DNA of 64,000 nt from Dehalococcoidales bacterium (GTDB lineage: Bacteria > Chloroflexota > Dehalococcoidia > Dehalococcoidales > RBG-16-60-22): the NCBI GenBank assembly GCA_002688435.1, contig NZCW01000043.1, positions 23,730-87,729 of the forward strand, given 5' to 3'. The notes beneath the pieces are model-generated. The model worked only from the letters and a program-made list of their open reading frames with translations. It ran no database searches and was not told the origin of the DNA. Position numbers and translations under genes: made by a program. This document shows positions 3,685 through 20,398 of this stretch, in pieces; positions within the stretch are counted from its first letter, which is position 1, and the number at the start of each line of letters is the position of its first letter.

Positions 3685-3857
3685 GTTCTGAACCCCCCTT
3701 TCCGAATTAGCCGGATAGATGAGCCGGAGACTGTCTTGATCAGTCACCCTGGCACAGGCTTAAGATAAAACGAGGCAACCAGAGCTAAACTGGCGACCAC
3801 GGGCCCTCACATCATCCTGGAAAAAGCAGAGACCATCTGCTTCCTTCCAGGGGGAAC

Positions 3858-3866
3858 ATTATACCA
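3858..3866 (-). promoter_or_regulatory. Extended -10 promoter element (TGGTATAAT) upstream of the NHL-repeat gene
   Basis: The reverse complement of 3858-3866 reads TGGTATAAT. It lies about 175 nt upstream of the ATG at 3684. Confidence 0.4.
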
Positions 3867-4461
3867 TAAGCCGCCGGCAAATGATAAATACTAAGCACAA
3901 AGGCTCTGTTCGGTTGACGCTGATGGCTAATTATTAAGATTAACTTAATAGGTAAGTATCCCTTAGGGGCAAGCATAGACTAGGACGCTGACTTCGATTA
4001 CGCTCAAGGCAGCAGACGGGACGGTGAGGAACAACTAACGGTCATGACTAAACTGACCTTGATTTACCGAACACCCTAGCCAATCTAATTATATCACTAG
4101 CCGTTACTTCGCAATCCAATAGAAAGAGTAATTTTGAAGTAGGCGTATAGTGCTTGGCTGCACACGCTAGACAGAAAGTTCACGAAGAATTATAATGAAT
4201 TTATTAAGGGTAAAATTTCAAGAATATACCTGTCCTGATGAAAATATTGCTGACGGCTAATCTGAAATAATTATCAACTCCTAGTGCCAGACCTGGCAAA
4301 AGACGAACCCAGCCTGTGGCTAAGGCTCCGAAATACCCAGCAAGAGATGGCAAAATGAGCAAGACCAAGCAGCTAAGAGAGATGCAGATATTAGAGTTTG
4401 GAGCGAAACGACTTTTAATATCAATTTTGACTAAATTTACGTAAATCTCCTGTATAAAGGG

Positions 4462-4489
4462 TTGACAAACCGTTATTTTATGGTATAGT
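4462..4489 (+). promoter_or_regulatory. Sigma70-type promoter of the surface-protein gene (TTGACA, 16 nt spacer, TGgTATAGT)
   Basis: TTGACA lies at 4462-4467 and TATAGT at 4484-4489, preceded by TGg (extended -10). The implied 5' UTR to the ATG at 4667 is about 170 nt. Confidence 0.6.
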
Positions 4490-4666
4490 TAGGGCTAGAA
4501 CAAGGTGAAAAGGAGGTGATGCCGTGGTCGAGACCCGCAAGGGGAGAGAGTTTTTGAACTCAAAAATAGCAGTTAAAGTAGGTCTCCACGAGAGCGAGGA
4601 ATTCGAGGTATAGCTCTGCGATTGGGGATATAAGCATATCCTAACAAGGAGGAAAAATAAAGGTCG

Positions 4667-7633
4667 ATGAGAAAAGAAATAGCTAAAATATGGGGTGTGG
4701 GCCTGACCGTAATCCTAGTGGCCAGCCTGCTGCTCGCGGCCGTGCCGATGGCTCAACCGGCACCGGCATCTGCTGGCACGCTTGGCTGGGGCGCAGAGAC
4801 CATCCCCACCACGACAGGTAAAGTCCTAGTCCCTGGAGCCAATGTTACTGACATGGATGTCTGTACAGCCGACCCGGATATCATCTGGGCCGTTGCTGAT
4901 ATTTCCTCAGGGGCAAGTAACGGAACCTACAAGTCTACCGACGCCGGTGTCTCCTGGACAAAGATAACCAATCACACCGGGGTAGGCACTGCCGCCGGAG
5001 GAGGCGTGCAACTGGTGGCCGTTGCCCCAGACGACCCGGACATCGTGGTGGTCGTGGCTGATAACAAGGAGGTCTATGCCACCACCAACGGTGGCACCAC
5101 TTGGGGCGACCTAACCACACCGAATGAGACCAGCACAACCGTTAATGACGCGGCAACCAATATCTACGACCTAGACGTCTCCACGGACGACGCCGGCATA
5201 AACTACGTTGGCGTGGCCGGTATTGATTCTGGGGCTAATGATGCCTCTGCAGACGCGATCAACACGGGTAATGTCTGGTACTTCAATATGGGCGCCGCGG
5301 CCCCGTCTTGGGTAGAAACAAACGACAAGACAGGTTTCGGTGCGGCTAACACGAACGTGACCACAGCTATGGCAGTGGCCTTCTCGCCTAGCTTCGCCTC
5401 GGACAAGGTAATGGTGGCCGTCACGGCGAATGTGACGGGAAATGTAAGTTTCGAGATGTGGAGCATGTCAAGCAAGGGCTGGAATGAGAGCGGTGCTTCC
5501 TTCACCAGCTACCCGGTATCACTGGTAGCTAACGCTGACGCCACGATTGCCACTCCGAGAGGTCTCTATGCCGCAGACATCTCACTGTCGCCGGACTACC
5601 TAGGCAGTGATGACTCCATGCGTACCGCCTTCGTCGGCTTGACGGTGGAAGGCTCTACCGCCAAGGACGGCATCTACCGTCTGAAAGACACCAGCAAGAA
5701 AGAGATGAAGGTGGCCATTGACGTGAACAGCGTGGCCTACGACGGCACCAACCTGGTCGCCGGCGAATTCGACAGCAACGTCTCCTATTACTGCGCCGAC
5801 CCGCTGGCAAGCTCGCCCACGGTCAGCACCACCGCTTCCCTGAAGAGAGCGGGTGGTAGCTCCCGTACCATAACTCGCTGGGCCGGCGTGGATGTACTCA
5901 CCGGAACCAGCGGCACGTCCAGCTCCCTCAATGTCTCCCGAGACAACGGCAAGAGCTACAACGGCATCAGCCTGGTTGATATCAGTACAGCAGCTGGGGA
6001 CGACAGTGGCACAAACGACCTTAACGATGTCGCGGTCTCAGCGGATGGCAGCACGATTTACCTGTCTGCTGATGACGGTACCAACCTGAGCATATGGCGC
6101 GGTGTTGATGGGGTCTGGGAAAGGGTGTTGGCGAAAGCTTCGGTAGCGAACACCATTGTCCGCATCGCTCCGGAAAACCCCGAATCGATCTACGTGGGGG
6201 AGACTGGTAGTGGCAAAAAGACCATCTACTACAGCAGCGAGGGTGGCGACACCAAGTGGTTCCAGCGCAGCTCCCGGTACGACGTCAAGGATTTCGCCGT
6301 GGAGAGCGACGATGTAATCTACGTAGCCGTGAATGCCGCCGGTTCGGTCAGCAAGAGCACCAATAGCGGCTTCACTTGGGGTACGTCCAAAGACGGCCTA
6401 CTGTTTGGTGGCAACAATGTCGCAATTCATAGCTTCGGTGAGGACCAACTGCTTCACACCAGCACCACCGGTTATGTCTCCTACTCCACCGACGGCAACT
6501 CCACCTGGGTGCAGATAAAGAAGCAGGTAAACTCCACATCCGGTACCATCCATGTGACTGCCAGCGGCCTGAACGACGGAGACTTCATCTACGCCGCCAG
6601 CGAAACCGCCAACCTGAATGTACGCCGATGGGAAGTCGGTACCAGCACTAGCTGGGGAGATATCATCAGCGGTACTCTCGCAACTGATCGTAATGCCGAT
6701 GACGACACCTCCGACACAGGCGAAACATTCCTCGCTTACGGAGCTGAGCTGATTGACGGCGTACTCTATGTCGTCGGCGTGGACGACGCGGCGGCGGATA
6801 GCTCATTGTTCCGGACCCTATCGCCGTCCACCGCTGCAAGCACCTCGGGCTGGAGCAACAAGCTGAGCACGAACGCTGACGATGAAGCGCTGACGCTCGG
6901 ATTCAGCTCATCCGATAGCGACGGCAACAACAAGCTATGGGGGATTGAGCCCGGTGATGACCAGCTCTTCAGCTTCGTCGATACCCTGCATACATTAGAG
7001 CCAGAACTGATCGGTCCGGAGGACGGAACGGAAATCGCGATAAACCCAGTGAGCGGTAACCCGTACAACGTGTCCTTCAGCTGGAGTCGTCCGTCCACGG
7101 CCAACAGATACAGTCTGGAGGTTTCTCTGGACGACGGCTTCTTCGAGGACGTCACCACCGAGACAGTACCTTCGACTACCACCACCACCACATCAGCTAC
7201 GATAGGCAAGGTACTGGTTGGTACTAACTTCAACGAAGGTACCACTTACTACTGGAGGGTCAGGGTAGCTTCGAACGGTCCGCTCTACAGCCCGTACTCC
7301 GAGGTCCGCAGCTTCACCGTTAGTTCGCTTCCGGCTCCTGCGGCGGCGGTAGTGGTTAAACCAGCTCCCGCGCCGATAGTCAGACCGGAGGTAGTGGTGG
7401 AGGCGCAGCCAGCACCGGTGATAAACCTTCCGGCACCGGTGGTAGAGGTACCCACGATAAACCTTCCGGCACCAGTGGTGAATATACCAGCACCACAAGA
7501 GGTGATCATCCCACCGGCACCGGCTCCCGCTCCCGCCGTTCCTACGGTAGCCATCTATGCCATCATCATCATCGGTGCCCTACTGGTGATCGCCTTGATC
7601 ATCCTGATAATGAGGACCCGACGCCCAATCTAA
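4667..7633 (+). CDS. Large secreted surface (S-layer-like) glycoprotein candidate. Its architecture is a signal peptide, Asp-box/BNR beta-propeller region, Fn3-like domain, Pro/Ala/Val-rich stalk and a C-terminal TM anchor.
   Basis: 988 aa. The N-terminal signal is MRKEIAKIWGVGLTVILVASLLLAAVPMAQPAPASA. Asp-box-like motifs include STDAGVSWTK, TTNGGTTWGD, SRDNGKSYNG, STNSGFTWG and STDGNSTW. About 14 N-X-S/T sequons are present by my count. A YYWRVRV Fn3-like motif is followed by the PAP-rich repeat INLPAPVVEVPT/INLPAPVVNIPA. The terminal helix is VAIYAIIIIGALLVIALIILIM followed by RTRRPI. Confidence 0.8.
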   Translation: MRKEIAKIWGVGLTVILVASLLLAAVPMAQPAPASAGTLGWGAETIPTTTGKVLVPGANVTDMDVCTADPDIIWAVADISSGASNGTYKSTDAGVSWTKITNHTGVGTAAGGGVQLVAVAPDDPDIVVVVADNKEVYATTNGGTTWGDLTTPNETSTTVNDAATNIYDLDVSTDDAGINYVGVAGIDSGANDASADAINTGNVWYFNMGAAAPSWVETNDKTGFGAANTNVTTAMAVAFSPSFASDKVMVAVTANVTGNVSFEMWSMSSKGWNESGASFTSYPVSLVANADATIATPRGLYAADISLSPDYLGSDDSMRTAFVGLTVEGSTAKDGIYRLKDTSKKEMKVAIDVNSVAYDGTNLVAGEFDSNVSYYCADPLASSPTVSTTASLKRAGGSSRTITRWAGVDVLTGTSGTSSSLNVSRDNGKSYNGISLVDISTAAGDDSGTNDLNDVAVSADGSTIYLSADDGTNLSIWRGVDGVWERVLAKASVANTIVRIAPENPESIYVGETGSGKKTIYYSSEGGDTKWFQRSSRYDVKDFAVESDDVIYVAVNAAGSVSKSTNSGFTWGTSKDGLLFGGNNVAIHSFGEDQLLHTSTTGYVSYSTDGNSTWVQIKKQVNSTSGTIHVTASGLNDGDFIYAASETANLNVRRWEVGTSTSWGDIISGTLATDRNADDDTSDTGETFLAYGAELIDGVLYVVGVDDAAADSSLFRTLSPSTAASTSGWSNKLSTNADDEALTLGFSSSDSDGNNKLWGIEPGDDQLFSFVDTLHTLEPELIGPEDGTEIAINPVSGNPYNVSFSWSRPSTANRYSLEVSLDDGFFEDVTTETVPSTTTTTTSATIGKVLVGTNFNEGTTYYWRVRVASNGPLYSPYSEVRSFTVSSLPAPAAAVVVKPAPAPIVRPEVVVEAQPAPVINLPAPVVEVPTINLPAPVVNIPAPQEVIIPPAPAPAPAVPTVAIYAIIIIGALLVIALIILIMRTRRPI
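7421..7479 (+). repeat. Tandem 36-nt period repeat inside the stalk-coding region
   Basis: ATAAACCTTCCGGCACCGGTGGT (7421-7443) recurs as ATAAACCTTCCGGCACCAGTGGT (7457-7479). Both copies encode INLPAPVV. Confidence 0.85.
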
Positions 7634-7666: not shown

Positions 7667-7700
7667 GAGAGCCCCCCGAAACCCGGGGGGCTCTCTCTTT
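7667..7700 (+). terminator. Rho-independent terminator after the surface-protein gene
   Basis: GAGAGCCCCCC(g-aaacc-c)GGGGGGCTCTC forms an 11-12 bp GC-rich stem followed by TTTAT. It lies 34 nt after the stop codon. Confidence 0.75.
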
Positions 7701-7769
7701 ATCCCAAACCGCAAGCGATTACTGGTGTCACCGGACAGCTGCGGCAATCTCCTTTAATAACACCTTCCT

Positions 7770-8885
7770 GCATCCTACCCGTAACCGCGTCCCGTATGCC
7801 GCTTGGCGGTCTCCAGCCTGTTCTCATTGAGTTTCCAAAGCAGAGCATCATCGGCCAGCAGTGCTATAATATGCCGAGAAACTCATCGGTACCCCGGGAC
7901 ATCAGAGCGTTCTTCGTATTCCCCTGATTGACAATGAAGTCCTCGTTCCAAAGTGCCCGGTAAACGACCACCGGTATGCCGCAGGCCATAATTTCCAGCG
8001 GCGGCGAGTTCCCGCCCTCAAACCTGGAGGTGGAAATAAACACATCCGCCAACGAAAACAGCCAGGCCATGAGGTCATCACCAACTCGCTCCCGGAAATC
8101 TATCCGGAACCCGGGCCTGACTTTCCGGACCAGCCTGGTGAAAGCTTCTTCCCGACCCACCGCCAGCAGCTTTACGCCGGGATTTACCCAGCAACAATAT
8201 TCAGAATCTTCAATATATCAAGCTCATTCTTCCACTTTATCCCTCTAATTAAAGCCATGACCACCTCCTCGCCGGTATTTTTACGCACCGGACTCAGGCA
8301 GAACACTTCCAGTTTCAGACCAATACCCACCCGGACCGCCGCCTTCGCCCAGGTCATACAGGTAGACCAGCCCCTCCAGCCAAGCCGAGGTGACAATCTT
8401 CTTCAGTGAGAGGTGGTAGGTTTCCCGGGTGACAAGGATATCACGGCTATTTTGAAAGAAAGACGGTTCGTAAGGCTGGGCGCAGTAAAAAACAGTACCT
8501 TTACCACTCCGGCAAACGACGGACTCCGTGAGGCAGAACGTGACGACATTAGTGTCGCACCCGGCGACGGCTTCCATCAGAGGCGTTAGCAGGTTGATAT
8601 CATGTCTAATCCGAGCAATTTGGTAACCGTGTCAATATCCAGATACCGGACGCCACGCCTCTTAACTATCCTGACCAGCGACTCCACAACCCTCAGCCAT
8701 GACGGCGGATTAACATAGCCCGCGGACGCTTCCAGCGGAAACCAACGATGGTCACCGGCCAGAGAAGTTATCATTATCTGGTGGCCTCTCCGAGTCAGGC
8801 CATTGGCCACCTCAAAAATATGCCTAGTGCCACCGGAAAGACTGGTCGTCCAAAGAGCAGAGTTTAGCCTGAGCCTATCCGCCAC
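7770..8885 (-). pseudogene. GT4-family glycosyltransferase, disrupted by at least four frame changes
   Basis: Consecutive fragments lie in different frames. The N-terminal fragment is 8586..8885 (LSGGTRHIFEVANGLTRRGHQIMI). Middle fragments are 8281..8577 and 8184..8396. The C-terminal Rossmann fragment is about 7864..8190 (PGVKLLAVGREE...STSRFEGGNSPPLEIMACGIPVV). A tail in a further frame reads ALLADDALLWKLNENRLETAKRH (about 7790-7863). Confidence 0.75.
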
Positions 8886-8926: not shown

Positions 8927-9451
8927 TCATCCGATAATGGAATAAGTCGCTTCCAACATATCCGGAGCGATAGCCTCCGGCGCTGCCTCTCCCTCGCTCA
9001 CCGGTGGCTGCCTCCCGATGAAGACAGTCCGACAACCGGCAGCCTTACCCATAGCAATATCGCTCATCATATCTCCCATCACGAAGGAATACTTGAGGTC
9101 AATATCATAATCCTTAACCGCTTGCCGTATCATACCAGGCTTCGGTTTACGGCAGTCACAGTTATCATCGGGGTGGTGGGGGCAATAGTAAATGGCGTCC
9201 ACCCGGGCACCTTCCCTGGCCAGCTCTCTCTTCATTTTTTTATGGATGTCCGCCAAGGTCTCCTCGGTGAAATAGCCCCGGCCAACGCCCGATTGATTAG
9301 TCACCACAATCACTTTAAAACCATGCTCATTGAGCAATTCTATAGCCCTGGCCGTATTGGGCAGCAATCTAAAATCCTCGGCACGGCAGCAGTAAGAGAC
9401 GTCTTCAGCCATGGTACCATCTCTATCCAGGAAAACAGCCCGGTCAGCCAT
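8927..9451 (-). CDS. gmhB: D-glycero-D-manno-heptose 1,7-bisphosphate phosphatase (HAD-IIIA)
   Basis: 174 aa. The motifs FLDRDGT, VVTNQSGVGRGYF, YYCPHHP and CDCRKPKPGM correspond closely to E. coli GmhB motifs recalled from memory. Confidence 0.9.
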   Translation of the reverse strand: MADRAVFLDRDGTMAEDVSYCCRAEDFRLLPNTARAIELLNEHGFKVIVVTNQSGVGRGYFTEETLADIHKKMKRELAREGARVDAIYYCPHHPDDNCDCRKPKPGMIRQAVKDYDIDLKYSFVMGDMMSDIAMGKAAGCRTVFIGRQPPVSEGEAAPEAIAPDMLEATYSIIG

Positions 9452-9469
9452 CAGTTATCTCTCCTTCCG

Positions 9470-9627
9470 TTAAATAAAATCGGCCGTGGAGTTATTGAAC
9501 TTAAACTTACTGTGGGTAAATCCTGGGTCATGACCACTGCTGCATGTTTCTCCTTGTGTACATCAATCCCTATCACCAGATACCCCACCGGGACTTGCTT
9601 GAGCTTGTTTGCTGCGCTATTCTTCAT
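9470..9627 (-). mobile_element. IS110-family transposase N-terminal remnant, truncated and frameshifted
   Basis: The reverse strand encodes MKNSAANKLKQVPVGYLVIGIDVHKEKHAAVVMTQDLPTV, and then in another frame KFKFNNSTADFI*. The (V/I)GIDVHK...H and KFxFxN motifs are IS110 DEDD-transposase N-terminal signatures. Only about 55 codons remain. A GAAGGAG SD precedes the ATG at 9627. Confidence 0.65.
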
Positions 9628-9804
9628 TCGATGGCTCCTTCTACTTAAATTTAGTGCTTTTGTTCCTACACCTCTTCATTGTAGCCGGAGCCATCACTAT
9701 TTCTCTTTCTATATACTAAATAAGCTTTTGGTTGATGACCCTATTTTCTTTAGCACCCCGCGTTTCCCTCATACTATATTGAACTTCTGAAGATAGAGTA
9801 ATAT

Positions 9805-10827
9805 CTACCGCCTGGCCAATATATTGGCCAGTTTCCCGGGACTGCATTCTTTGAGGAGAGAAGCGATGTCCATTAAGGATACTGATTCCTTTTCCTCATC
9901 TATGCCATAAAGACTAAATCCATAATTTACCAGTCTATTTAGGTATTCCTCTGGCGACGAATCAAACCGCCTTATTGCCTCAGGTAGGAACTCGGTGATA
10001 ATTATCAAGTCTTTATTTTGGTTAATCATATTTTCCATTCCTTCAAGAACGGCCAGTTCGGCGCCTTCAACGTCTATCTTGACAAAGTCAATTCTACCAT
10101 TGTAATTACTGACGAAGCTGTCCAGGGTTTGTGTTTCAACCTCAATTGTGTCTCTGCCAAAGGTATATGTATCCTCGCCTTGTCTGGCTAAGGAATGGCT
10201 GCCAAGATTAGTTCTGTCTAAAAATAGCATCGCCCTCCCATTTATATTGGAGATGGCTTTTTGTATCGGGGTGACATTGTGATAGCCATTTATAGTTATA
10301 TTCTTTACTAGTAAATCAAAACTATGCGGATCAGGTTCAAAAGCGAAGACCTTTCCCTTCTCACCCGCCAGCCTGGCCATAATCAGCGTGAAATAGCCTA
10401 TGCTGGCTCCGATATCCAGACAGACCATCTCTCTGGTGATGACGCTTTCCACTACCTTGGTCATTTGTTTGTTGTAAATACCTGTGAAGACTAAATCTGG
10501 AGTAAGGTCTCCCATATCCCCGATATCAACACACATCTGGTGCTCTTGCACTGGAACTAAAATGACTCTTTCCTGCGGTATTAAAGCTTGATATAAGAAT
10601 GTATACAACTTCATAACCAGGGGAAATCGGCCCAGTCCTAGCCCTGACTCGGCAAAAAACCTGACGACCTTTACAAAATATGAATACAGCATATCATTCT
10701 TACTCTGGTTGACCACGACATACATGTACCGGTCTATCGCCGTACTCACCACCGCCCTTGCCCCAAGCCGGTAATAATCGGCTAAGTCCGTAGCGCCGCC
10801 GATAAAGCTTGCCGGAAGAGGGTGCAC
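9805..10827 (-). CDS. FkbM-family SAM-dependent methyltransferase
   Basis: 340 aa. The CLDIGASIGYFTL (SAM-binding) and FAFEPDPHSFDLL motifs, plus VKIDVEGAE, are typical of the FkbM domain. Confidence 0.8.
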   Translation of the reverse strand: MHPLPASFIGGATDLADYYRLGARAVVSTAIDRYMYVVVNQSKNDMLYSYFVKVVRFFAESGLGLGRFPLVMKLYTFLYQALIPQERVILVPVQEHQMCVDIGDMGDLTPDLVFTGIYNKQMTKVVESVITREMVCLDIGASIGYFTLIMARLAGEKGKVFAFEPDPHSFDLLVKNITINGYHNVTPIQKAISNINGRAMLFLDRTNLGSHSLARQGEDTYTFGRDTIEVETQTLDSFVSNYNGRIDFVKIDVEGAELAVLEGMENMINQNKDLIIITEFLPEAIRRFDSSPEEYLNRLVNYGFSLYGIDEEKESVSLMDIASLLKECSPGKLANILARR

Positions 10828-11052
10828 GTAATAACCATTTTACCTTCCCCACTTCATAACTTCCCGAAGGCCGGTCACCGCTCCGGAACATAGCGAGACA
10901 AACATCCCTATTTATATCACAACTAGGCACTTTGTGCCACTCCGCCACCAGTTCCCGTGACGGTAACGTGATCCACAGCCCAACCACCATTCTCCCTGCT
11001 CACCTTGCGCCGTCGAGTCCTTTAACCTATAATATAGGCGGAGGAGAACTGG

Positions 11053-11706
11053 ATGTTAGTATTGGGGCACGCCGGAATCACCCTAGGCGCGGCCGTACTG
11101 TTAAGCGGTGCGCTCTCCAGAAACAGCTACTCGATTTACGGGGCAGGGAAGAGACAGGGGCAACCCGGAGCATCGGGCGGACTTTTGCCTTCCCGGGACC
11201 GCACCGCTTTTAACAGCCCATCCTGGACCACCTTCCTGTCACGCTATATGCACCCAAGGCTTCTGCTTATCAGTTCACTTCTCCCGGACATCATTGATAA
11301 ACCGATAGGGGTTTTTTTCTTGCGTGAGACACTCAGCAATGGGCGCATATTTTGCCATACCTTTCTCTTTCTCGTCCTGCTTACCCTGACCGCGATTTAC
11401 CTCTACCGACGTTACGGCGAAACCAGGCTCTTCCCCCTCTCTTTCGGCACCTCCACTCATCTCGTCTTTGACCAGATGTGGCATACTCCCCAGACTCTCT
11501 TCTGGCCCGTTTTAGGCCTCACCTTCGATAAGCTAGAGTTTACCACCTTTACCAGCTGGATATCATATCTTGTCCACAACCTACTGGCATACCCCGATGT
11601 ATTTATTCCAGAGCTGATTGGTGCCGTAATAATCATCGGGTTTACCGGGATACTGGTGCGCAGAAGAAGTGTCCGCACCTTTATCCGCTACGGACAAATC
11701 CGGTAA
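11053..11706 (+). CDS. Membrane-bound metal-dependent hydrolase-like protein (DUF457/YdjM-like)
   Basis: 217 aa. The N-terminus is MLVLGHAGITLGAAVLL and several hydrophobic segments follow. A GGAGGAG SD and a TATAAT (11025-11030) lie upstream. Confidence 0.45.
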   Translation: MLVLGHAGITLGAAVLLSGALSRNSYSIYGAGKRQGQPGASGGLLPSRDRTAFNSPSWTTFLSRYMHPRLLLISSLLPDIIDKPIGVFFLRETLSNGRIFCHTFLFLVLLTLTAIYLYRRYGETRLFPLSFGTSTHLVFDQMWHTPQTLFWPVLGLTFDKLEFTTFTSWISYLVHNLLAYPDVFIPELIGAVIIIGFTGILVRRRSVRTFIRYGQIR

Positions 11707-11795
11707 CAGCTTCTGGTGGCCGGTAAACCCGGGACAATACCGATAGATTGTGCTATTACCCGAGCAGTGCTATACTTTATCACAGGGGCTACTCA

Positions 11796-14228
11796 ATGCG
11801 ACAAAACGCTTTGTTTTCACCGAAGCTCGTGGCTGGCATACTAGTAGCCCTGGCTTTCGGCATCGCCCTGTATTTCCGCATTGCCTTACCCTATGACCGG
11901 GTATTTGTCGACGACCTGATAAAATTCACCTCGTTTGACCCTTACTACCATATGCGCCTGGTGGACAGCCTGGTCCTCAATTTTCCCCACCGCATCCCCT
12001 TTGACCCCTATGCCCATTTCCCTGACGGCGTCCCGGTGACCTGGGCTCCTTTCCTCGACTGGTTGCTGGCCGGCATCATCCTGGTGTTAAGCCTAGGTTC
12101 ACCTACCCAGCACACAATAGATATTATCGGCGTTTATTTCCCGGCAGTTTTAGGCGCACTAACCGTCATCCCGGTCTTCTTCGTCGGTAAAGTACTGTTC
12201 AATCGCTGGGTGGGCGTAATAGCCGCTGGCCTGATTAGCATTGCCCCGGGCGAATTTATGAGCCGGTCAATACTCGGCTTCACCGACCACCATGTCGCCG
12301 AGGTGTTTTTTACCACCGTGATCATGCTGTTCCTCATTCTGGCGGTGAAGAGTGCCCGGCAGAAAAAACTGACTTTCCGCCATCTGAAGCGCCCAGACTG
12401 GACAACTATCGCCAAGCCTCTGGTGTACACCCTACTTACCGGTGTTTTCCTGGGAATCTTTATTCTCACCTGGGTCGGGGCACCACTCTTCGTTTTCATT
12501 ATTTTCGCCTGCTTTCTGGCTCAGTTCACTATTGACCAAAGGAACGGTATCTCCACCGACTACCTGGCTATCGTGGGCATTCCGTCTTTACTAATTGCCA
12601 CGGCAATCAGCCTGCCCCTTGCCACTCCGTTTTTAATCAGCTCCCTGCATTTAGCCATGCTGGCACTAGCTATCCTCGCGCCAGCGGTACTGGCTGGTAT
12701 CTCCCGGCTGCTAACCGTTAGAAGGCTAAAGCCAGTCTATTCGACACGTCTTGTCCTGGCTTACTATACCGGTGACAAAACACGCTACATCCCCACCCCG
12801 GTAAAACTTACTCCCGGGAACACATACCTCCTGACCCTGGTTGGAATCGGTCTGGTGGGACTACTAATTCTTTCCGTTGTCAGTCCCGCCTTCAACACGG
12901 TAGTGAGGGATACACTAGGCAGTATCTTCCTCCCGCACCTGCTCGGAGAAACCGTGCTTGAAATGCAGTCTATCTTTTTCCCCCATGGCAACTTCTCTTT
13001 CCAGGCCGTCTGGGGAAATTTCACCACTGGCTTCTTCCTCAGCCTTATTGCTTTAGGCATATTGATTTACCAAGTGAATAAACACGGTGAAGTTGATAAG
13101 ACACTACTGGTGGTCTGGAGCCTGATTATTCTAGCAGCTACCATAGGGCAACGCCGATTTGCTTATTACATGGCGGTTAATGTGGCCCTGCTCACCGGCT
13201 ACGTGTCATGGCTAATTCTCGAATTCGCTGGTTTCAAGAAACTGGTGGCCAAGTCGGTGGATTCAGAACCAACGGTGAAGAAAAAAGATGGCCAACCGAA
13301 AAAGACCCGGAGGGAAATCGTCCTCCCTACCAGCCCGGTATACATGGCCCTGGGATTACTAGTTGTCTTTTTCATCAGTTTCTTCCCCAATATCGGACCA
13401 GCCAAGAATATGGCCAGCCAGGCCCATTTTACTCCCAGCGATGCCTGGTACGAGTCACTCACCTGGTTAAATGAAAATACGCCGGAACCGTTTGGTGATG
13501 CCGACTTCTACTACGAACTATATGAACCACCCTCTCCGGGAGAAAACTATGACTACCCAGAAAATGCCTATGGCGTCATGGCCTGGTGGGACTATGGCCA
13601 CTGGATTACCCGCATCGGCCGCCGTCCCGTAAATGCCAGTCCGGCTACCTGGGGCAGCTGTGCCACTTTTTTCGGTGCCCGGGATGAAGCTACCGCTAAT
13701 GCAACGATATATGACATGGGGATAAAGTATGTCGTCGTCGACTATGACATAGCCTTCGGCAAATTCCACGCCATCCCCACCCTGCTCAACGAGAACAAAG
13801 ACACCTTTTACGAGTTATGCTACCAGTCTCAAGAAGGTAAGCTCAGACCCATAACCATCTTCCGCCCTAATTATTACCTCTCCCTCCCTATCAGGCTATA
13901 CAATTTCAACGGTCAAGAAGCGGTCGTCTCGGAGCAGGTGACGGTAGTTTCTTGCGAGTGGAAGACAGATCGAGAAGGTGAACTCTATAAGGAAATCACC
14001 AGCGCCCAATTTTTCCCCAGCTACGAAGAAGCGAAAGCCTACGTCGGCGGAGTCCCCACCGACCTCTTAGGACGCTATGAAATAATCGGCACCAACCCAT
14101 ATGTCAGCCCAATACCCTTGAAAGCACTGGAACACTTTAAACTCATTTATCAATCAGCCAGCCAGATAGAGGACCGGCGTATAGGAGGCTGGACTCCAGA
14201 AGTAAAAATCTTTGAGTACGTGAAATGA
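11796..14228 (+). CDS. Oligosaccharyltransferase of the STT3/AglB/PglB superfamily (AglB-like)
   Basis: A polytopic N-terminal domain is followed by a soluble C-terminal domain. The motifs are FDPYYHMR (first external loop), TDHH (12285-12293), WWDYGHW (13584-13598, the family hallmark) and a downstream DIAFGKFHAI (DK/MI-type region). I prefer the ATG at 11796 (MRQNALF...) to the track's TTG at 11748. Confidence 0.85.
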   Translation: MRQNALFSPKLVAGILVALAFGIALYFRIALPYDRVFVDDLIKFTSFDPYYHMRLVDSLVLNFPHRIPFDPYAHFPDGVPVTWAPFLDWLLAGIILVLSLGSPTQHTIDIIGVYFPAVLGALTVIPVFFVGKVLFNRWVGVIAAGLISIAPGEFMSRSILGFTDHHVAEVFFTTVIMLFLILAVKSARQKKLTFRHLKRPDWTTIAKPLVYTLLTGVFLGIFILTWVGAPLFVFIIFACFLAQFTIDQRNGISTDYLAIVGIPSLLIATAISLPLATPFLISSLHLAMLALAILAPAVLAGISRLLTVRRLKPVYSTRLVLAYYTGDKTRYIPTPVKLTPGNTYLLTLVGIGLVGLLILSVVSPAFNTVVRDTLGSIFLPHLLGETVLEMQSIFFPHGNFSFQAVWGNFTTGFFLSLIALGILIYQVNKHGEVDKTLLVVWSLIILAATIGQRRFAYYMAVNVALLTGYVSWLILEFAGFKKLVAKSVDSEPTVKKKDGQPKKTRREIVLPTSPVYMALGLLVVFFISFFPNIGPAKNMASQAHFTPSDAWYESLTWLNENTPEPFGDADFYYELYEPPSPGENYDYPENAYGVMAWWDYGHWITRIGRRPVNASPATWGSCATFFGARDEATANATIYDMGIKYVVVDYDIAFGKFHAIPTLLNENKDTFYELCYQSQEGKLRPITIFRPNYYLSLPIRLYNFNGQEAVVSEQVTVVSCEWKTDREGELYKEITSAQFFPSYEEAKAYVGGVPTDLLGRYEIIGTNPYVSPIPLKALEHFKLIYQSASQIEDRRIGGWTPEVKIFEYVK

Positions 14229-14911
14229 AATGCTTGATACTGGCCGGCGGTTTTGGCACCCGACTCTACCCTCTAACCATTCACCAAGCAAAGGCTTTGC
14301 TAGAATATAAAGGCAAGCCGTTACTGACCCATATCGTGGACAAAGTCCCTCAGGAGATAGACATTCTCATTTCCACCAACCGGAAATTTGAGACCGGTTT
14401 TCGCCGCTGGCAGGAGACGAGAGCCCGACCGGTAGAAATCTGCGTTGAAGATGTCAGGACCGAGGAGGGGAAAAAGGGGGCGGTCGGCTCGCTAAACCTC
14501 TGGATTGAGCAGAAACATATTACGGAAGACCTACTAGTTATCGCCGGTGATAACTATTTTGAATTCGACCTCTTGCAGTTTATGGCTAGTTACGATGGCA
14601 AGAATACACTGGTAGCCATTTATGACATTAGCGATAAAAGTAAAGCCGGCCAGTTTGGCGTCGTTCGGGTGGAGGAGCACCGGATAATTGAGCTGGAAGA
14701 AAAACCCGTCAGGCCCAGGTCCAGTCTCATTGCCACCGCCTGTTATATTTTCCCGCCCAGAATATTCCCCTGGCTCTCTCGTTACTGCGCCGCCGGCGAA
14801 CGGGACAACCTGGGCAACCTCATTACTTATCTTGTAGATACCGATGAAGTTCACGCTTATACTTTCACAGAACAATGGCTTGACATAGGCAGTATCAAGA
14901 ACCTAGCATAA
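14225..14911 (+). CDS. Sugar-1-phosphate nucleotidyltransferase (HddC/RmlA-like small NTP-transferase)
   Basis: 228 aa. It has the LILAGGFGTRLYPLT signature. The start overlaps the AglB stop codon (ATGA), implying translational coupling. Confidence 0.8.
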   Translation: MKCLILAGGFGTRLYPLTIHQAKALLEYKGKPLLTHIVDKVPQEIDILISTNRKFETGFRRWQETRARPVEICVEDVRTEEGKKGAVGSLNLWIEQKHITEDLLVIAGDNYFEFDLLQFMASYDGKNTLVAIYDISDKSKAGQFGVVRVEEHRIIELEEKPVRPRSSLIATACYIFPPRIFPWLSRYCAAGERDNLGNLITYLVDTDEVHAYTFTEQWLDIGSIKNLA

Positions 14912-14969
14912 ACCATAGGAGAAGCTTGGTAATTGACTTACTCATCCAGTAATTTTAAGATAGATAAAG

Positions 14970-16442
14970 ATGCGTAGTAAGGTTATACTCATTAATCCGC
15001 GCTTCACGGAAGAAGTCACTTTATTCAATCTCCCCATAGGTATACTGCACCTTGGCTCCTGGCTTATGAAGAATGGGTATGAAGTGAAGGTGATAGATGC
15101 CTTACACAGTAAGAATCAGAGCGAATTTTCGATGAAGCTATCGCAAGAGTTGGATGACGCTATCTGTGTTGGACTCAGTGTTATTAGTACCCAGATACCC
15201 AGTGCTCTCATGATTACTGGTTCAGTCAAGGCAGTCAATAGAAACATCCCGGTAATTTGGGGGGGAGCTCATCCAACGTTATATCCTGAACAGACAGCGG
15301 CCAGTGAGTTGGTTGACTTTGTTGTTGCTGGAGAAGGAGAACAGCCTCTATTGAAGATACTATCAGCTTTGGGGAGTGGCACCAAAATAGGTAAAATAGT
15401 CCAGAGTGAAGATAGTATTAAGATGGATGAGCTACCCTGGATAAGTCCCGAATTAGTGGGTGATATATCTCCAGATATGACCCTTAAAAAGATCACCGAA
15501 AAAACGATGTATGGATTCCCAATACTTACTGGAATGGGCTGCCCATATCACTGTACATTTTGTATGAATTCCGTCATCGACCAGAAGTATAAAAGAAGAA
15601 GTGCCACCAACATACTGGACAATATCCAGGCACTGGCTAAAAACTATGCTATAGAAAGGATCTGGTTTGTTGACGAAAATTTCTTTGGTGATAAGAGGCG
15701 GGCCAAGGAATTTGTCGATGGCACATTGAATAGAGAGTTAAAATTCAAATGGTTTTCTGGTGGTAGAACCACCTACTTTAGAGATAATTACTTGGGCTCC
15801 GAGGAGTTTCTCAATAAGGTAAAGGAATCAGGATGCCAGGTGATGGGGACTGGTGCGGAGTCAGGCTCTCAGAGAATATTGGACATGGTATGCAAGGGGA
15901 CAAAAGTGTGGGATACCATAAATATGGCCGAAAAGGTTAGCAAATCGGGCATGATAGCTAACTTTTCATTTATGATAGGTCTTCCCACGGAAACAAAAGC
16001 CGAATACAAAATGACCCTCAAACTAATAGACCAGATAGTAAAGATAGATCCACGATTCTACATCTTCGGCCCGCAAATATATCGACCATATCCCGGGTCC
16101 GTACTATATAACGAATGTCTCAAGTATGGCATGAAAAAGCCGGAAACACTAGAGGAATGGGCAGATAGTCCTTACATACATTTCGAATTTTCCAAGAAGA
16201 GTCATTTCAGTAAAGAGCTGTATCCTTGGGTTCTGTATGATAAGGATTTAACGGAAATCGTATTTTATGCCACTCTTATGGGAAAACAACCGGGAAACAA
16301 AATTGTTACCAGTATTTTAAGGGCCATAGGCAGATGGAGATGTCTGAATTTTAATTTTAGATTTCCAATTGAAAAGAAGGTGTATGGTCTGATAAGAGGC
16401 TCATTTATTGAAATACTGCTACGAAGATGGAAGTTTGTCTGA
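14970..16442 (+). CDS. B12-binding-domain radical SAM enzyme (class B rSAM, methyltransferase-like)
   Basis: 490 aa. An N-terminal Rossmann-like B12-binding region is followed by the radical SAM cluster motif CPYHCTFC. Confidence 0.75.
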   Translation: MRSKVILINPRFTEEVTLFNLPIGILHLGSWLMKNGYEVKVIDALHSKNQSEFSMKLSQELDDAICVGLSVISTQIPSALMITGSVKAVNRNIPVIWGGAHPTLYPEQTAASELVDFVVAGEGEQPLLKILSALGSGTKIGKIVQSEDSIKMDELPWISPELVGDISPDMTLKKITEKTMYGFPILTGMGCPYHCTFCMNSVIDQKYKRRSATNILDNIQALAKNYAIERIWFVDENFFGDKRRAKEFVDGTLNRELKFKWFSGGRTTYFRDNYLGSEEFLNKVKESGCQVMGTGAESGSQRILDMVCKGTKVWDTINMAEKVSKSGMIANFSFMIGLPTETKAEYKMTLKLIDQIVKIDPRFYIFGPQIYRPYPGSVLYNECLKYGMKKPETLEEWADSPYIHFEFSKKSHFSKELYPWVLYDKDLTEIVFYATLMGKQPGNKIVTSILRAIGRWRCLNFNFRFPIEKKVYGLIRGSFIEILLRRWKFV

Positions 16443-16540
16443 CGAACCAGAGAATGGCCAAGGAAACTTTGACTGGGTCAATATATGGTCCCAAAGGATA
16501 AATCTAACACTTTCGGATAACACTGATGGCACCAACAGAC

Positions 16541-16575
16541 ATTGACGCACACGGTAATTAAAGGCTAATATAAAC
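16541..16575 (+). promoter_or_regulatory. Candidate promoter (TTGACG, about 18 nt spacer, TAATAT) upstream of the heptose kinase/adenylyltransferase gene
   Basis: The sequence cattgacgcacacggtaattaaaggctaatataaac lies about 40 nt upstream of the ATG at 16611. Confidence 0.3.
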
Positions 16576-16610
16576 TAAAGCCCGGCAACAGACACTAAAC
16601 CAAGGCAGTT

Positions 16611-18146
16611 ATGGAGTCAAGAGGAATTTTAGATAAGATTAAGACCCTGGACGAGTTAGCAGTGGTTATCCAGGCTTTGAAAAAGAAAGGCGAGACCGTG
16701 GTCCACTGCCACGGGGTATTTGATTTGCTTCACCCCGGGCATATCCGGCACTTTGAAGCCGCCAAACGGGAAGGGGATATACTCGTTGTCACCATAACCG
16801 CGGATGAAGATGTAGACAAAGGACCGGGGCGACCAGTCTTCAATCAAAGACTCCGTATGGAGTCTATTGCCTCCCTCCAGTGCGTCGATTATGTCGCCAC
16901 CAACGAGTGGCCCACGGCGGTTAAGACGATTCAGAAGCTCAAGCCGGATATCTATGTAAAAGGAAGTGATTACGCCAATCGAGAAAATGACCTGACCGGC
17001 CAAATTTATCAGGAGGAGGCGGCCATCAAATCCGTCGGGGGAGGGATTCATTTTACAGACGAGCCGGTCTTCAGCTCCACCAAGCTCTTGAACCTCCATT
17101 TTGATGTCTACCCTGAGGAAGCCAGCCGATTCTTGGCCGAATTCCGCGGTAAATACTCGGCCGGGAATATCGTTAAACGACTAAACGACCTCAGCCAGAT
17201 GAAAGTGATGGTCATCGGAGACACCATAATTGACCAGTACTGTTACTGCCATACCTTAGGGAAATCGCTCAAGGACAATATCATTACCACCAGATATCTG
17301 CGGGAGGAAACTTTTGCCGGCGGCGTCCTGGCAGCGGCCAACCACATGGCCGGTTTCTGTCAGGAAGTCCATCTGGTCACCTGCCTAGGGACACAAAATA
17401 GCTACGAGGAATTTATCCGGGCTCACTTAAAGCCCAATATCAAGCCAAAGTTCTTCTGCCGTGACGATGCGCCCACCGTGGTGAAACGCCGCTTCGTAGA
17501 GCCGGACTTTCTTTCCAAGATGTTCGAAATCAGCTACCTTGACGACCACGAACTGGCTCAACCCCTGAACCAGGAGGTTTATGACTATTTAGGAACCAAC
17601 ATCAACGGCCATGACCTAGTCGTGGTAACTGATTTCGGGCATGGATTTATCGGACAAACGATCACCGAGCTGCTGGGTGAGAGAGCCAAATTCCTAGCCG
17701 TTTGTAGCCAGACCAATAGCGCCAATACCGGTTTTAACCTCATCACCAAGTATCCCCGAGCCGATTACGTTTGCCTCGATGAAGCCGAAATACGGCTGGC
17801 TTGTCATGATAAATTCGGCCGGCTCGAGGATTTAATAACGAGGGTAGCCAAAGAGCTTAGCTGCCACCACGTAGCTGTCACCCGCGGCCGTCATGGTTCA
17901 CTGACCTACGCCGCGGATGATGGCTTCTTTGAAATCCCTGCTCTATCAGATGAGGTGATAGACCGGGTTGGCGCCGGCGATGCCTACCTCGCGGTTACGT
18001 CTCCTTGCGTCGCCAATGGCAATCCGATGAATGTAGTTGGCTTTATCGGCAATGCCGTTGGTGCCCTGAAAGTTCGCATTGTTTGTAATCGGGATTCGGT
18101 GGAGCCGGTACCGCTTTTCAAATTTATTTCGGCACTCCTGAAATAA
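16611..18146 (+). CDS. Bifunctional heptose-phosphate nucleotidyltransferase / PfkB sugar kinase (HldE/RfaE-like, with domains in reversed order)
   Basis: 511 aa. The N-terminal roughly 150 aa match RfaE domain II (HCHGVFDLLHPGHIRHF ... KGSDY, HxGH cytidylyltransferase fold). The C-terminal roughly 330 aa are a PfkB-type kinase (DxVGAGDA motif: RVGAGDAYLA). Confidence 0.75.
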   Translation: MESRGILDKIKTLDELAVVIQALKKKGETVVHCHGVFDLLHPGHIRHFEAAKREGDILVVTITADEDVDKGPGRPVFNQRLRMESIASLQCVDYVATNEWPTAVKTIQKLKPDIYVKGSDYANRENDLTGQIYQEEAAIKSVGGGIHFTDEPVFSSTKLLNLHFDVYPEEASRFLAEFRGKYSAGNIVKRLNDLSQMKVMVIGDTIIDQYCYCHTLGKSLKDNIITTRYLREETFAGGVLAAANHMAGFCQEVHLVTCLGTQNSYEEFIRAHLKPNIKPKFFCRDDAPTVVKRRFVEPDFLSKMFEISYLDDHELAQPLNQEVYDYLGTNINGHDLVVVTDFGHGFIGQTITELLGERAKFLAVCSQTNSANTGFNLITKYPRADYVCLDEAEIRLACHDKFGRLEDLITRVAKELSCHHVAVTRGRHGSLTYAADDGFFEIPALSDEVIDRVGAGDAYLAVTSPCVANGNPMNVVGFIGNAVGALKVRIVCNRDSVEPVPLFKFISALLK

Positions 18147-18218
18147 AACAGACCAAGAGCACCTGACCGAATATGGTCCGTTGCTTCCAGAGATCCGTGA
18201 CTAATAGAGGTAACGCTT

Positions 18219-19220
18219 ATGAAAAAAACAACCACGGTATTCATTACCGGCGGCGCCGGCTATGTTGGCTCCATCCTGGTACCCAAGCTCCTGGATAAGG
18301 GATACCGGGTCAAGGTACTTGACCTCTATCTCTATGGCGAAGACGTCCTGGATACAGTCAAAGACCACCCCCACTTGGAGCAAATCAAAGGAGACATCCG
18401 AGACCGGGCTCTTCTGGAAAAAGTGATTCCCGGTACCGACGCCTTATTCCACCTCGCCTGCATCTCTAATGACCCCAGTTTTGAGCTAGACCCTCAGCTG
18501 GGCAAGTCCATCAATTATGACGCCTTTCTCACCCTGGTAGCAGTAGCCAAGCAGTGCCGGGTAAAGCGGTTCATCTACGCCTCCACTTCCAGCGTATATG
18601 GTATTAAAAAAGAGGATGATGTCACCGAAGAGCTACTCCCCGAGCCGCTGACGGACTACTCCAAATACAAGGCCTTGTGCGAAGATGTCCTACTTAAAGA
18701 GCAGTCGCCTGACTTCACCACCGTGGTTATTCGTCCAGCCACAGTCTGCGGTTACTCTCCCCGCTTAAGGCTGGACTTGACGGTAAACATCCTGACCAAT
18801 CTGGCCGTTAATACCGGCCGCATTACCGTATTCGGTGGCCAACAGAAGCGCCCTAATATCCACATCGAAGATATGACGGATTTGTACGTTCAGCTTCTGG
18901 AACTACCCGATGAGAAGATTGCCGGTAAAATATTTAACGTCGGATACGAAAATCACCCGGTTTCCGAAATTGCCGAGATAGTCAAAGGGGTGGTCGGAGA
19001 AGATGGACTGGAAATTATCACCACCCCGAGTAGTGATAACCGCTCTTACCACATTTCCTCGGAAAAAATCGGGCGGGAACTAGGTTTTAAACCAAAGCAC
19101 ACCATTGATGAGGCCGTAAAAGACCTCTGCGACGCCTTTAAAGCTGGCAAGGTTCCCCACCCGCTAGATGACATCCGGTACTACAATATAAAGACCATGT
19201 TGGCCAGGCAGCTCCAGTAA
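18219..19220 (+). CDS. NAD-dependent nucleotide-sugar epimerase/dehydratase (extended SDR)
   Basis: 333 aa. It has GGAGYVGS (GxxGxxG) and YSKYK (YxxxK). Confidence 0.8.
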   Translation: MKKTTTVFITGGAGYVGSILVPKLLDKGYRVKVLDLYLYGEDVLDTVKDHPHLEQIKGDIRDRALLEKVIPGTDALFHLACISNDPSFELDPQLGKSINYDAFLTLVAVAKQCRVKRFIYASTSSVYGIKKEDDVTEELLPEPLTDYSKYKALCEDVLLKEQSPDFTTVVIRPATVCGYSPRLRLDLTVNILTNLAVNTGRITVFGGQQKRPNIHIEDMTDLYVQLLELPDEKIAGKIFNVGYENHPVSEIAEIVKGVVGEDGLEIITTPSSDNRSYHISSEKIGRELGFKPKHTIDEAVKDLCDAFKAGKVPHPLDDIRYYNIKTMLARQLQ

Positions 19221-19240
19221 TATTAAGAGAGGAGAACAGG

Positions 19241-20398
19241 ATGAGAGTGGAATATTCGTATTTATTAAAACAGTTTGAGGTGAAAGAAGGCGAAGCGAAA
19301 GTCAAATACGTGGACCTGCCAAAGCAGGCAAATGTCGAGGCCATACTTACCGACATCAAAGAGATTCTGCTGAAGACAGGACAATTTACCCTCGGTCAGC
19401 CGGTGGCCGAGTTTGAAGCCGGGTTTGCCAAGCTATGTAAGACCAAGTATGCTGTGGGCCTTAACTCCGGGACGGACGCCCTTTTCCTTGCCTTGAAAGC
19501 CCTGAATATAGGCTCCGGAGATGAAGTTATTACCGCACCCAATAGCTTCTTCGCCACGGCTGCGGTAATCGCCATTGCCGGAGCAAAACCGGTCTTCGTT
19601 GATGTCAATAACGAATACAATATCGATGCCGAGCTGATAGAGCGGGCCATAACCCATCGGACAAAAGCGATTTTGCCGGTACATTTAACCGGCAACCCTG
19701 CCGATATGCCAAGGATAATAAATATTGCCCGACGGCATGACTTGCACATCATCGAAGACGCCGCTCAGGCGGTCAGCGCCACCATTGACGGGCAACCGAC
19801 CGGCTCCTTCGGCATTGCCGGAGGCTTCAGCTTCCACCCTCTGAAGAATCTTAACGTGTGGGGAGACGGGGGCATTACGACCACGAATTCCAGAGAACTA
19901 TCCGATAGGATCAGGTTACTGAGAAACCACGGCTTGAAAACCCGGGATGAGATTGAGGTTTTCGCCTATAACAGCCGGCTGGATACCCTGCAGGCTATCG
20001 TGGCCAATCGGTTATTAAACGCCCTGGATGCCATAACCGATGCCAGGATAAAGAACGCCAAAACGTATGATGACGGCCTGTCCGACTTAACAGACCATAT
20101 TACCCTGCCACCCAGAAAGAGTAACGTAAAGCAGGTCTACCATACCTACGTAATATTAGCCAAGGAGAGGAATAAGCTAGGTACTTATCTGGCCGAGAAG
20201 GGAATAGAAACCAAAGTCCATTACCCGATACCCCTGCACCTACAGCCGGCCAGCAAATACCTAGGACATCAGGAAGGAGATTTCCCGGTATGCGAAGCCC
20301 AGGCAAAGTCTATTTTAACGCTGCCGGTCCACCAGCACCTAGCGGATGACCAGGTAGCCTACGTGATTGATAGCATCAGGAAATTCTACCGGAAATAA
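19241..20398 (+). CDS. DegT/DnrJ/EryC1/StrS-family PLP-dependent nucleotide-sugar aminotransferase
   Basis: 385 aa. Family-typical motifs include GQFTLGQPVAEFE, HLTGNPADM and FSFHPLKNL (PLP lysine region). Confidence 0.85.
   Translation: MRVEYSYLLKQFEVKEGEAKVKYVDLPKQANVEAILTDIKEILLKTGQFTLGQPVAEFEAGFAKLCKTKYAVGLNSGTDALFLALKALNIGSGDEVITAPNSFFATAAVIAIAGAKPVFVDVNNEYNIDAELIERAITHRTKAILPVHLTGNPADMPRIINIARRHDLHIIEDAAQAVSATIDGQPTGSFGIAGGFSFHPLKNLNVWGDGGITTTNSRELSDRIRLLRNHGLKTRDEIEVFAYNSRLDTLQAIVANRLLNALDAITDARIKNAKTYDDGLSDLTDHITLPPRKSNVKQVYHTYVILAKERNKLGTYLAEKGIETKVHYPIPLHLQPASKYLGHQEGDFPVCEAQAKSILTLPVHQHLADDQVAYVIDSIRKFYRK

Follow-up and report, generated by a model that had tools for sequence, protein, structure and literature searches.

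What does an uncultured marine bacterium of the order Dehalococcoidales display on its surface, and is the protein in question built like the surface-layer (S-layer) glycoproteins of haloarchaea, as its layout and an archaeal-type oligosaccharyltransferase gene nearby might lead one to think? The question is raised by a 64,000-nucleotide stretch of contig NZCW01000043.1 (positions 23,730 to 87,729 of the forward strand; assembly GCA_002688435.1), hereafter the window, to which all coordinates below refer. On its forward strand, 4667-7633 is a genuine open reading frame (ORF) of 988 amino acids, and the presence in the same window of plsX, dnaB and other core genes of bacteria agrees with the bacterial source that an earlier, sequence-only reading had assumed. 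That reading had described the product as an S-layer-type envelope protein of archaeal design. We find that the gene is a further member of a known Dehalococcoidia S-layer family, whose architecture is already known from Dehalococcoides; its product is likely to be the S-layer (cell-envelope) protein of a marine Dehalococcoidales bacterium, belonging to the DET1407/Q3Z6N3 family. The archaeal analogy is confined to architecture.

Homology to the Dehalococcoides protein DET1407

The proposed envelope role is borne out by homology over the full length of the protein. An hhalign comparison of the family profile with the ORF of DET1407 (Q3Z6N3), the putative S-layer protein of Dehalococcoides mccartyi, gave a probability of 100% and an E-value of 1.8e-41 over 833 columns aligned end to end, with ~27% identity. 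The DET1407 gene was located by searching metagenome contigs with a back-translated tryptic peptide, YFGNQWNQTA. The ORF thus found (L081:2274-5279, reverse strand; 1001 residues) contains all three published S-layer multiple-reaction-monitoring (MRM) peptides of strain 195, YFGNQWNQTALCK, AGIIPAPTTASDAYK and VAYGTTTGTETTATTLK, and its length agrees with that published for Q3Z6N3. Two further searches returned no match: a scan of the metagenome with the back-translated FL2 peptide TWYSADGLTFTK, possibly on account of the I/L ambiguity, and a protein homology search with the concatenated DET1407 tryptic peptides, which the word index missed. BLASTP against a related Dehalococcoides protein (on L082) aligned three collinear segments at 25-29% identity.

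The window protein and DET1407 share the order of their parts, namely a signal peptide, tandem Asp-box propellers, an Ig/Fn3-like domain, a Pro-rich linker and a transmembrane (TM) helix, and the two genes further share the anchor (...GAVL.IAVIVLIVRTRR), the leader elements and the terminator hairpin discussed below. DET1407 differs in having one more Fn3 domain. Its gene sits after pyrG, a transaldolase gene and rho, whereas the window gene lies near an AglB glycan cluster and, unlike DET1407, comes from an uncultured marine lineage. DET1407 has been treated as an S-layer protein (PMC5102406) and is one of the proteins that Dehalococcoides makes in the largest amounts, with a rank of ~6 in strain 195 (PMC6646388, supplement). 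Both Q3Z6N3 and a Dehalogenimonas homolog have been listed as beta-propeller S-layer proteins with p6 lattices, and the symmetry-constrained models of Q3Z6N3 yield a p6 lattice consistent with electron microscopy (bioRxiv 10.1101/2024.05.28.596244, the listing being in its Table S2).

The nearest proteins are annotated as "hypothetical" in metagenome-assembled genomes (MAGs) of Dehalococcoidales, at up to 90% identity, and hundreds more follow at 40-50%. An exhaustive profile search at E <= 1e-30 placed the size of the family at 2,457 cluster representatives (50% identity). All 80 family loci that we recovered, drawn from one-genome-per-species GTDB contigs, are from Dehalococcoidia or Chloroflexota and, judged by these sequences, the family is restricted to Dehalococcoidia.

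Many Dehalococcoidales carry, ~1.5 kb downstream of the gene described so far (type A), a second paralog of ~1060 residues and ~26% identity, which we term type B. It is found at loci L019, L020, L023, L027, L029, L032, L040, L046, L047, L049, L050 and others, and has a conserved yet distinct anchor, ...PGWIIYLIGGLL...VLKI[KR]RF. At L020 a reading frame on the opposite strand lies between the type-A and type-B genes. No tandem type B paralog occurs in this window; its presence elsewhere suggests a two-component envelope in the lineages that carry both. Extra paralogs are seen in some genomes, such as that at L014, from the same MAG as L006, and those at L033 and L041, which share a MAG; the L014 paralog, a 1299-residue reading frame, appears by eye to end in a dockerin-like segment and has no TM anchor.

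Domain anatomy of the protein

Hydropathy analysis detected two hydrophobic segments in the protein. The first, at residues 5-32, is followed by ASA-GT at residues 34-38, in agreement with the cleavage after ASA that had been proposed, and the second, at residues 953-986, is followed directly by RTRRPI, as expected from the earlier description of a single terminal TM helix with a basic tail. The signal peptide has neither a lipobox Cys nor a twin-arginine motif; P33, A36 and W41 are invariant in an alignment of 26 sequences, and residues 2-24 were modeled as a helix, with a low predicted local distance difference test score (pLDDT), by AlphaFold2. This model, built from 26 relatives, has a mean pLDDT of 79.8 and a predicted template-modeling score (pTM) of 0.76, most blocks scoring 85-95. 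In it, residues 58-783 make up ~14 four-stranded blades and residues 788-885 fold into a beta-sandwich of seven strands; the stalk is disordered, and residues 960-984 are helical.

The propeller assignment is also apparent in the sequence. Six matches to the Asp-box pattern [ST]x[DN]xGxx[WFY] were found (residues 90, 139, 173, 424, 564 and 681), against 0.18 +/- 0.42 in composition shuffles, none of 5000 of which reached six; the five or six motifs counted at the outset are thus well founded. Two variants, SSEGGDTKW at 523 and STDGNSTW at 607, add to these, and the Pfam Sortilin-Vps10 family of BNR propellers matches with 44 bits (cutoff 33, E 1.8e-11). Together with the Ig-like domain, the mature ectodomain (residues 37-887) is acidic, with 105 D+E against 47 K+R.

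The Fn3-like module surmised from the motif YYWRVRV corresponds to the modeled beta-sandwich, which is also matched by the Pfam families PF25788 and PF16656 at E ~1e-4, under their cutoffs; W806, Y861, W863 and R866 in this domain are invariant in the 26-sequence alignment. The run of threonines had been placed between this module and the stalk; it actually lies at residues 837-842, within the Ig-like domain and ahead of YYWRVRV (861). The stalk itself has 20 P, 15 A and 15 V in 71 residues and a pLDDT below 50 over residues 903-952. Of the 12-residue tandem repeats attributed to it, a repeat is present, but with two copies only, INLPAPVVEVPT (residue 919) and INLPAPVVNIPA (residue 931), which do not match perfectly. 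In the DNA these appear as direct repeats with a spacing of 36 nt (7420-7488, 85% identical), and Tandem Repeats Finder reported no tandem array in the stalk region. A Pfam scan of the protein found no SLH, LPXTG or other cell-wall-binding domain, which sets it apart from the classical SLH- or cell-wall-anchored S-layer proteins of bacteria.

A near-invariant C-terminal anchor

The most conserved part of the protein is its membrane anchor. Its helix and tail have the consensus ...IIIIGAxLVIAxIxLIxRTRR, of which 12 positions are 97-100% identical among 104 relatives selected by homology, as against a mean column identity of 39% for the whole protein, and the motif is carried by 108 of 115 full-length relatives. 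DET1407, which was found via unrelated peptides, likewise terminates in ...AYIWLIVAVGAVLTIAVIVLIVRTRRVV. Given this near-invariance, the helix would make specific contacts, most likely by packing against other such helices at the symmetry axes of a lattice or because a partner or a processing enzyme recognizes it.

Known sorting signals do not account for the motif. None of the NCBIfam sorting-domain models (PGF-CTERM, PEP-CTERM, LPXTG and others) was reached by the C-terminus. At E <= 10 PGF-CTERM gave no match at all, and what did appear were sub-threshold matches to generic TM anchors, such as GG_III-CTERM (14.7 bits, cutoff 22); the LPXTG anchor model scored 12.4 bits (cutoff 15.9) on the family-consensus tail. 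No archaeosortase or exosortase was found among the ~38 window ORFs scanned, and the window holds one RTRR-tailed ORF. We also considered and set aside a sorting signal common to several proteins: across the sampled neighboring genes of the 80 loci, ORFs with a TM helix and basic tail were all family paralogs, except for an unrelated 520-residue ORF in L074.

A conserved expression cassette

The gene had been described as monocistronic with strong expression signals, and each of these signals is present and kept in distant family members. The promoter, TTGACA-N16-TATAGT with an extended -10, matches 11 of 12 consensus positions; most type-A loci have TTGACA-N16/17-TATAGT in the corresponding place, 178-235 nt upstream of the ATG, and the promoter is conserved in the 90%-identical relative L083. 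Its position puts the start codon ~170 nt further on, as originally estimated for the 5' untranslated region. The terminator is likewise real, with one correction: the T tract behind the hairpin (TCTCTTTAT) is weak. The hairpin GAGAGCCCCCCGAAAnnCGGGGGGCTCTC recurs almost verbatim behind the type-A genes of ~50 loci, whose proteins share ~30% identity, and behind DET1407. Such sequence conservation of a terminator is unusual.

Between promoter and gene lies a structured leader (Table 1). A signature consisting of AAAGGAGGTGAT, a start codon and a CCCG-NRA-GGG hairpin was found in 50 of 86 sequences, the DET1407 locus included; each locus has it a single time, and its distance to the ATG of the RTRR-anchored gene downstream is in every case 145-187 nt, and the translation start context AAGGAGGAAAAATAAAGGTCGATG is nearly invariant in type-A loci. 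The long-range helix is paired in 95.6% of cells and has compensatory changes in 7 of 9 pairs, with a covariation that none of 500 shuffles attains; slid controls gave 35-64% pairing. MAFFT and RNAalifold applied to the whole leader recovered two helices only and misaligned the second hairpin, which was hence checked sequence by sequence; it is kept in nearly all loci despite sequence change (GAGUU/AACUC, CAGAGC/GCUCUG, GGAGC/GCUCC). A regulatory switch is conceivable, since in the window the hairpin directly before the true ribosome-binding site shares nucleotides with the 3' strand of the long helix. A leader peptide was rejected, as the short ORF after the Shine-Dalgarno-like element varies in frame and length between loci; conservation at the RNA level is simpler.

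Rfam 15 has no family matching the window, the leader or four other loci. We put forward this leader, on the strength of its conservation and covariation, as a candidate new cis-regulatory or stabilizer RNA of Dehalococcoidia S-layer genes. Long leaders have been reported for other S-layer genes, and the 3' end of bacterial 16S rRNA, to which the 12-nt element would be complementary, is conserved. A parallel is offered by STAB-SD of Bacillus thuringiensis cry3A, a 5' mRNA stabilizer in which a Shine-Dalgarno-like sequence likewise occupies a 5'-proximal place in a long leader, far upstream of the real ribosome-binding site, the gene being very highly expressed (PMC4113751). The window element differs in comprising 12 nt followed by a start codon, in lying within a covarying multi-helix structure and in belonging to another phylum, and its function would be the same by analogy. 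A "riboswitch" upstream of DET1407 has been mentioned (PMC5102406), which we could not tie to a known Rfam class.

The intergenic region (3748-4666, 920 bp) separates the S-layer gene from a divergent NHL-repeat gene. Comparison with the close relative L083 shows an insertion in each of the two, of 200 bp here (~3920-4118) and of 100 bp in L083, and a second promoter-like site, TAGACA-N17-TATAAT, is seen at 4168-4196.

Table 1. Coordinates of the features of the S-layer gene and its neighborhood in the window
Feature	Position	Strand	Details
Sigma-70-type promoter	4462..4489	+	-35 TTGACA 4462-4467; 16-nt spacer; extended -10 TG 4481-4482; -10 TATAGT 4484-4489
Structured 5' leader, ~171 nt	4496..4666	+	Transcription would start near 4496
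Leader Shine-Dalgarno-like element	4509-4520	+	AAAGGAGGTGAT, 12 nt, then start codon (GTG here)
Leader GNRA hairpin	4534-4543	+	CCCGCAAGGG
Leader hairpin	4548-4561	+	GAGTT/AACTC
Leader long-range helix	4582-4587 with 4624-4629	+	GTCTCC with GGGGAT
Leader hairpin	4626-4641	+	GGATAT-AAGC-ATATCC
Ribosome-binding site of the gene	4646-4652	+	AAGGAGG
Sec-type signal peptide	4667..4774	+	Residues 1-36; hydropathy analysis; predicted signal peptidase I cut between ASA and GT
Propeller ectodomain, acidic	4784..7015	+	Residues ~40-783; ~14 blades of four strands each, interpreted as a tandem of two 7-bladed Asp-box beta-propellers
Ig/Fn3-like beta-sandwich	7028..7321	+	Residues 788-885; holds T-run (837-842) and YYWRVRV (861-867)
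Pro/Ala/Val-rich stalk	7328..7540	+	Residues 888-958; predicted disordered from composition and low pLDDT
TM helix, cytoplasmic tail RTRRPI and stop	7544..7633	+	TM residues ~960-982, tail 983-988; model helix 960-984
Intrinsic terminator	7667..7705	+	Hairpin 7667-7695, GAGAGCCCCCCGAAACCCGGGGGGCTCTC then TCTCTTTATC; 12-bp stem, 10 GC pairs
Sugar-nucleotide/glycan gene cluster	8927-23784		Surrounds AglB
Archaeal-type oligosaccharyltransferase AglB/STT3	11796..14228	+	810 residues from M17 of the ORF starting at 11748; 4 kb downstream of the S-layer gene

AglB and the question of N-glycosylation

The haloarchaeal comparison gains its appeal from the neighborhood. In the S-layer glycoprotein (csg) of Haloferax volcanii, a PGF-CTERM signal is processed by archaeosortase A and sequons are N-glycosylated by AglB. 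The window protein resembles it in its signal peptide, acidic beta-rich ectodomain, membrane-proximal stalk (Thr/Pro-rich in csg), single C-terminal hydrophobic helix and basic tail, and in having nearby an AglB of the "archaeosortase A-associated" subfamily (TIGR04154, 592 bits against a cutoff of 450). This AglB contains the Pfam STT3 and AglB_core domains. Its best match among solved structures is Archaeoglobus fulgidus AglB-L (3WAJ, E 2e-55), with which the residues of the catalytic DPYYH, DHH, WWDYG and DK motifs align, PglB giving no match; the enzyme is intact. At an identity of 50% or higher its relatives fall into more than 120 clusters, of which all named ones are from Dehalococcoidia or Chloroflexota, the closest being annotated as Dehalococcoidales bacterium. 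These AglB genes are widespread in Dehalococcoidia and lie in an ordinary bacterial chromosomal context beside flippase and sugar genes. The cluster around the window copy encodes gmhB and an hldE-like gene of the heptose pathway, a nucleotidyltransferase, a DegT aminotransferase, epimerases/dehydratases, two B12-radical-SAM enzymes and TylF and FkbM methyltransferases.

It is thus to be asked whether the protein is an archaeal-style S-layer glycoprotein, with its sequons modified by the neighboring AglB and the glycan essential for the lattice. This would refine the reading of the protein as a DET1407-type S-layer protein and is not exclusive of it. As the dominant exported protein, an S-layer protein would be an obvious substrate, and the ~14 N-X-S/T sequons reported for this one are exactly 14, a density of 14.2 per 1000 residues against 3.0 in 38 other window ORFs. 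However, this 4.8-fold excess arises from composition, N making up 5.6% and S+T 20.9% of the protein as compared to 3.5% and 11.1% of the other window proteins: composition-preserving shuffles have 10.9 +/- 2.9 sequons (P=0.18). The same holds across the family, with 900 sequons observed and 837 expected in 115 full-length relatives (ratio 1.075), and for DET1407, with 10 observed and 10.5 expected. Nor are the positions conserved. N611, inside an Asp-box, is the sole common sequon position (18 of 26 sequences), while N273, though invariant, is part of a sequon in just 9 of 26. Hence the sequon richness on which the sequence-only reading had leaned does not serve as evidence of N-glycosylation; one of the refutations named in that reading, a sequon frequency no higher than background for a protein rich in N, S and T, applies.

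The linkage to aglB that the same reading proposed to look for in related genomes is also narrow. The synteny of AglB and the S-layer gene is repeated in the 90%-identical marine relatives, and in L002 the homolog is preceded by a partial AglB gene, but in the ~857 kb of flanks of the 80 family loci AglB is otherwise absent; a conserved aglB linkage was accordingly rejected. The literature searched offered nothing relevant on AglB, STT3 or N-glycosylation in Dehalococcoidia or Chloroflexi and no glycoprotein evidence for Dehalococcoidia S-layers. Taking both sides together, we regard N-glycosylation of the window protein as plausible, though unsupported by its sequence and somewhat doubtful, and hold the same tentative view of the full glycoprotein interpretation.

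The likeness to csg itself thus stands in the stalk and C-terminal TM layout, combined with the lack of an SLH or cell-wall-anchor domain, and fails at the level of homology. The csg ectodomain has Ig-like domains, whereas that of the window protein consists of propellers; Pfam and NCBIfam scans matched no haloarchaeal S-layer family, returning propeller and Ig-like matches only, and both the PGF-CTERM signal and a window archaeosortase, as noted above, are wanting. A more ambitious synthesis would join all these strands: the Dehalococcoidia would have an archaeal-style envelope, in which their own propeller S-layer is glycosylated by a horizontally acquired archaeal AglB, the anchor helix would be a PGF-CTERM-like sorting or processing signal, and the leader would define a new class of S-layer mRNA stabilizers or regulators. 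As a whole, we think this unlikely.

Two neighboring regions deserve mention in their own right. Directly downstream of the S-layer gene, at 7864-8885 on the reverse strand, three consecutive ORFs of ~98 residues look like pieces of one GT1/GT4 glycosyltransferase; a similar fragmentation, with called genes of 101, 98 and 62 residues, is seen in the 90%-identical relatives L083-L085, and the fragments are probably a shared pseudogene. At the edge of the glycan cluster (24074-26548, reverse strand), an 824-residue ORF has a weak spermine/spermidine-synthase-like match (E 5.8e-5).

Weighing the S-layer assignment

Several points count against the assignment to the S-layer. The role of DET1407 is itself "putative", being based on abundance, electron microscopy of cells and modeling, and not on genetics or in situ structure, and the window protein is merely ~27% identical to it. 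High abundance and lattice formation would have to carry over to the window protein from relatives, abundance being known for D. mccartyi alone; in the window itself the pointers to them are indirect, namely the conserved strong promoter, leader and terminator. On the RNA side, the single-sequence fold of the leader is no more stable than that of shuffles (z = -0.18), and a stabilizing mechanism would be transferred to it by analogy with Bacillus.

These points leave some room for an abundant membrane-anchored surface protein that acts outside a lattice, be it a Vps10/sortilin-type receptor or adhesin, or a scaffold for periplasm-facing respiratory complexes. The top Pfam match, to Sortilin-Vps10, agrees with the former, but it is limited to the Asp-box repeats. 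A specific membrane partner is suggested by the near-invariant TM helix, and the DET1407 transcript is tightly linked to those of the major reductive dehalogenases (PMC5102406). Moreover, with a differently anchored second paralog in many genomes, a lattice need not be made of one protein. Against this, S-layer proteins typically share the features seen here, in size, acidity, abundance and the layout of stalk plus anchor, and the published Q3Z6N3 models give a lattice that agrees with microscopy. We consider a non-lattice role improbable.

The least credible proposal, and one that we judge very improbable, would make the protein a BNR/Asp-box glycoside hydrolase anchored at the surface, akin to GH74 xyloglucanases or to sialidases: the top PDB sequence and Foldseek matches are indeed GH74 enzymes, xyloglucanases such as 7KN8, 4LGN and 2CN2 having two tandem 7-bladed Asp-box propellers, and there is a weak NCBIfam match to the F510_1955 glycosylhydrolase family, but the latter, at 38.6 bits, is far under its cutoff of 175 and no family model is reached, the sequence matches span ~100 residues of Asp-box repeats out of register (so that the GH74 catalytic Asp pair is not mappable), the fold matches have 12-14% identity and TM-scores of 0.25-0.35, level with those of unrelated tandem propellers, Utp and PorZ among them, the protein has no FRIP or RIP sialidase motif and is, unlike GH74 enzymes, membrane-anchored via a stalk, and its homolog DET1407 is a top-abundance structural protein.

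Proposed mechanism

Returning to the S-layer assignment, we propose the following. The protein would be exported through the Sec pathway and its signal peptide cut after ASA. The acidic ectodomain, with its two tandem propellers and one Ig-like domain, would form a surface canopy, which in Dehalococcoides is modeled as a p6 lattice, and the Pro-rich stalk of ~70 residues would bridge the gap to the cytoplasmic membrane, where the single C-terminal helix and RTRR tail would anchor the protein. Anchoring of this kind suits the Dehalococcoidia, a lineage reported to be without peptidoglycan. Very high expression would be achieved by a self-contained cassette consisting of a near-consensus promoter, the structured leader, a strong ribosome-binding site and a very stable terminator, wherein the 5'-proximal Shine-Dalgarno-like element and its start codon probably hold a ribosome and shield the mRNA from 5' decay in the manner of STAB-SD.

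Implications

In bioremediation, the Dehalococcoides S-layer protein is used as a biomarker in the field, and models of its beta-propeller lattice already exist. The anchor helix, the leader RNA and the terminator, all of them far better conserved than the ectodomain, provide handles on how the envelope is built and its genes are expressed in these wall-less bacteria, the leader being a candidate for a new cis-regulatory RNA outside Rfam. Finally, the wide occurrence of archaeal-type AglB in Dehalococcoidia, and in this lineage beside the S-layer gene, may make AglB-type N-glycosylation in a bacterium testable by glycoproteomics.

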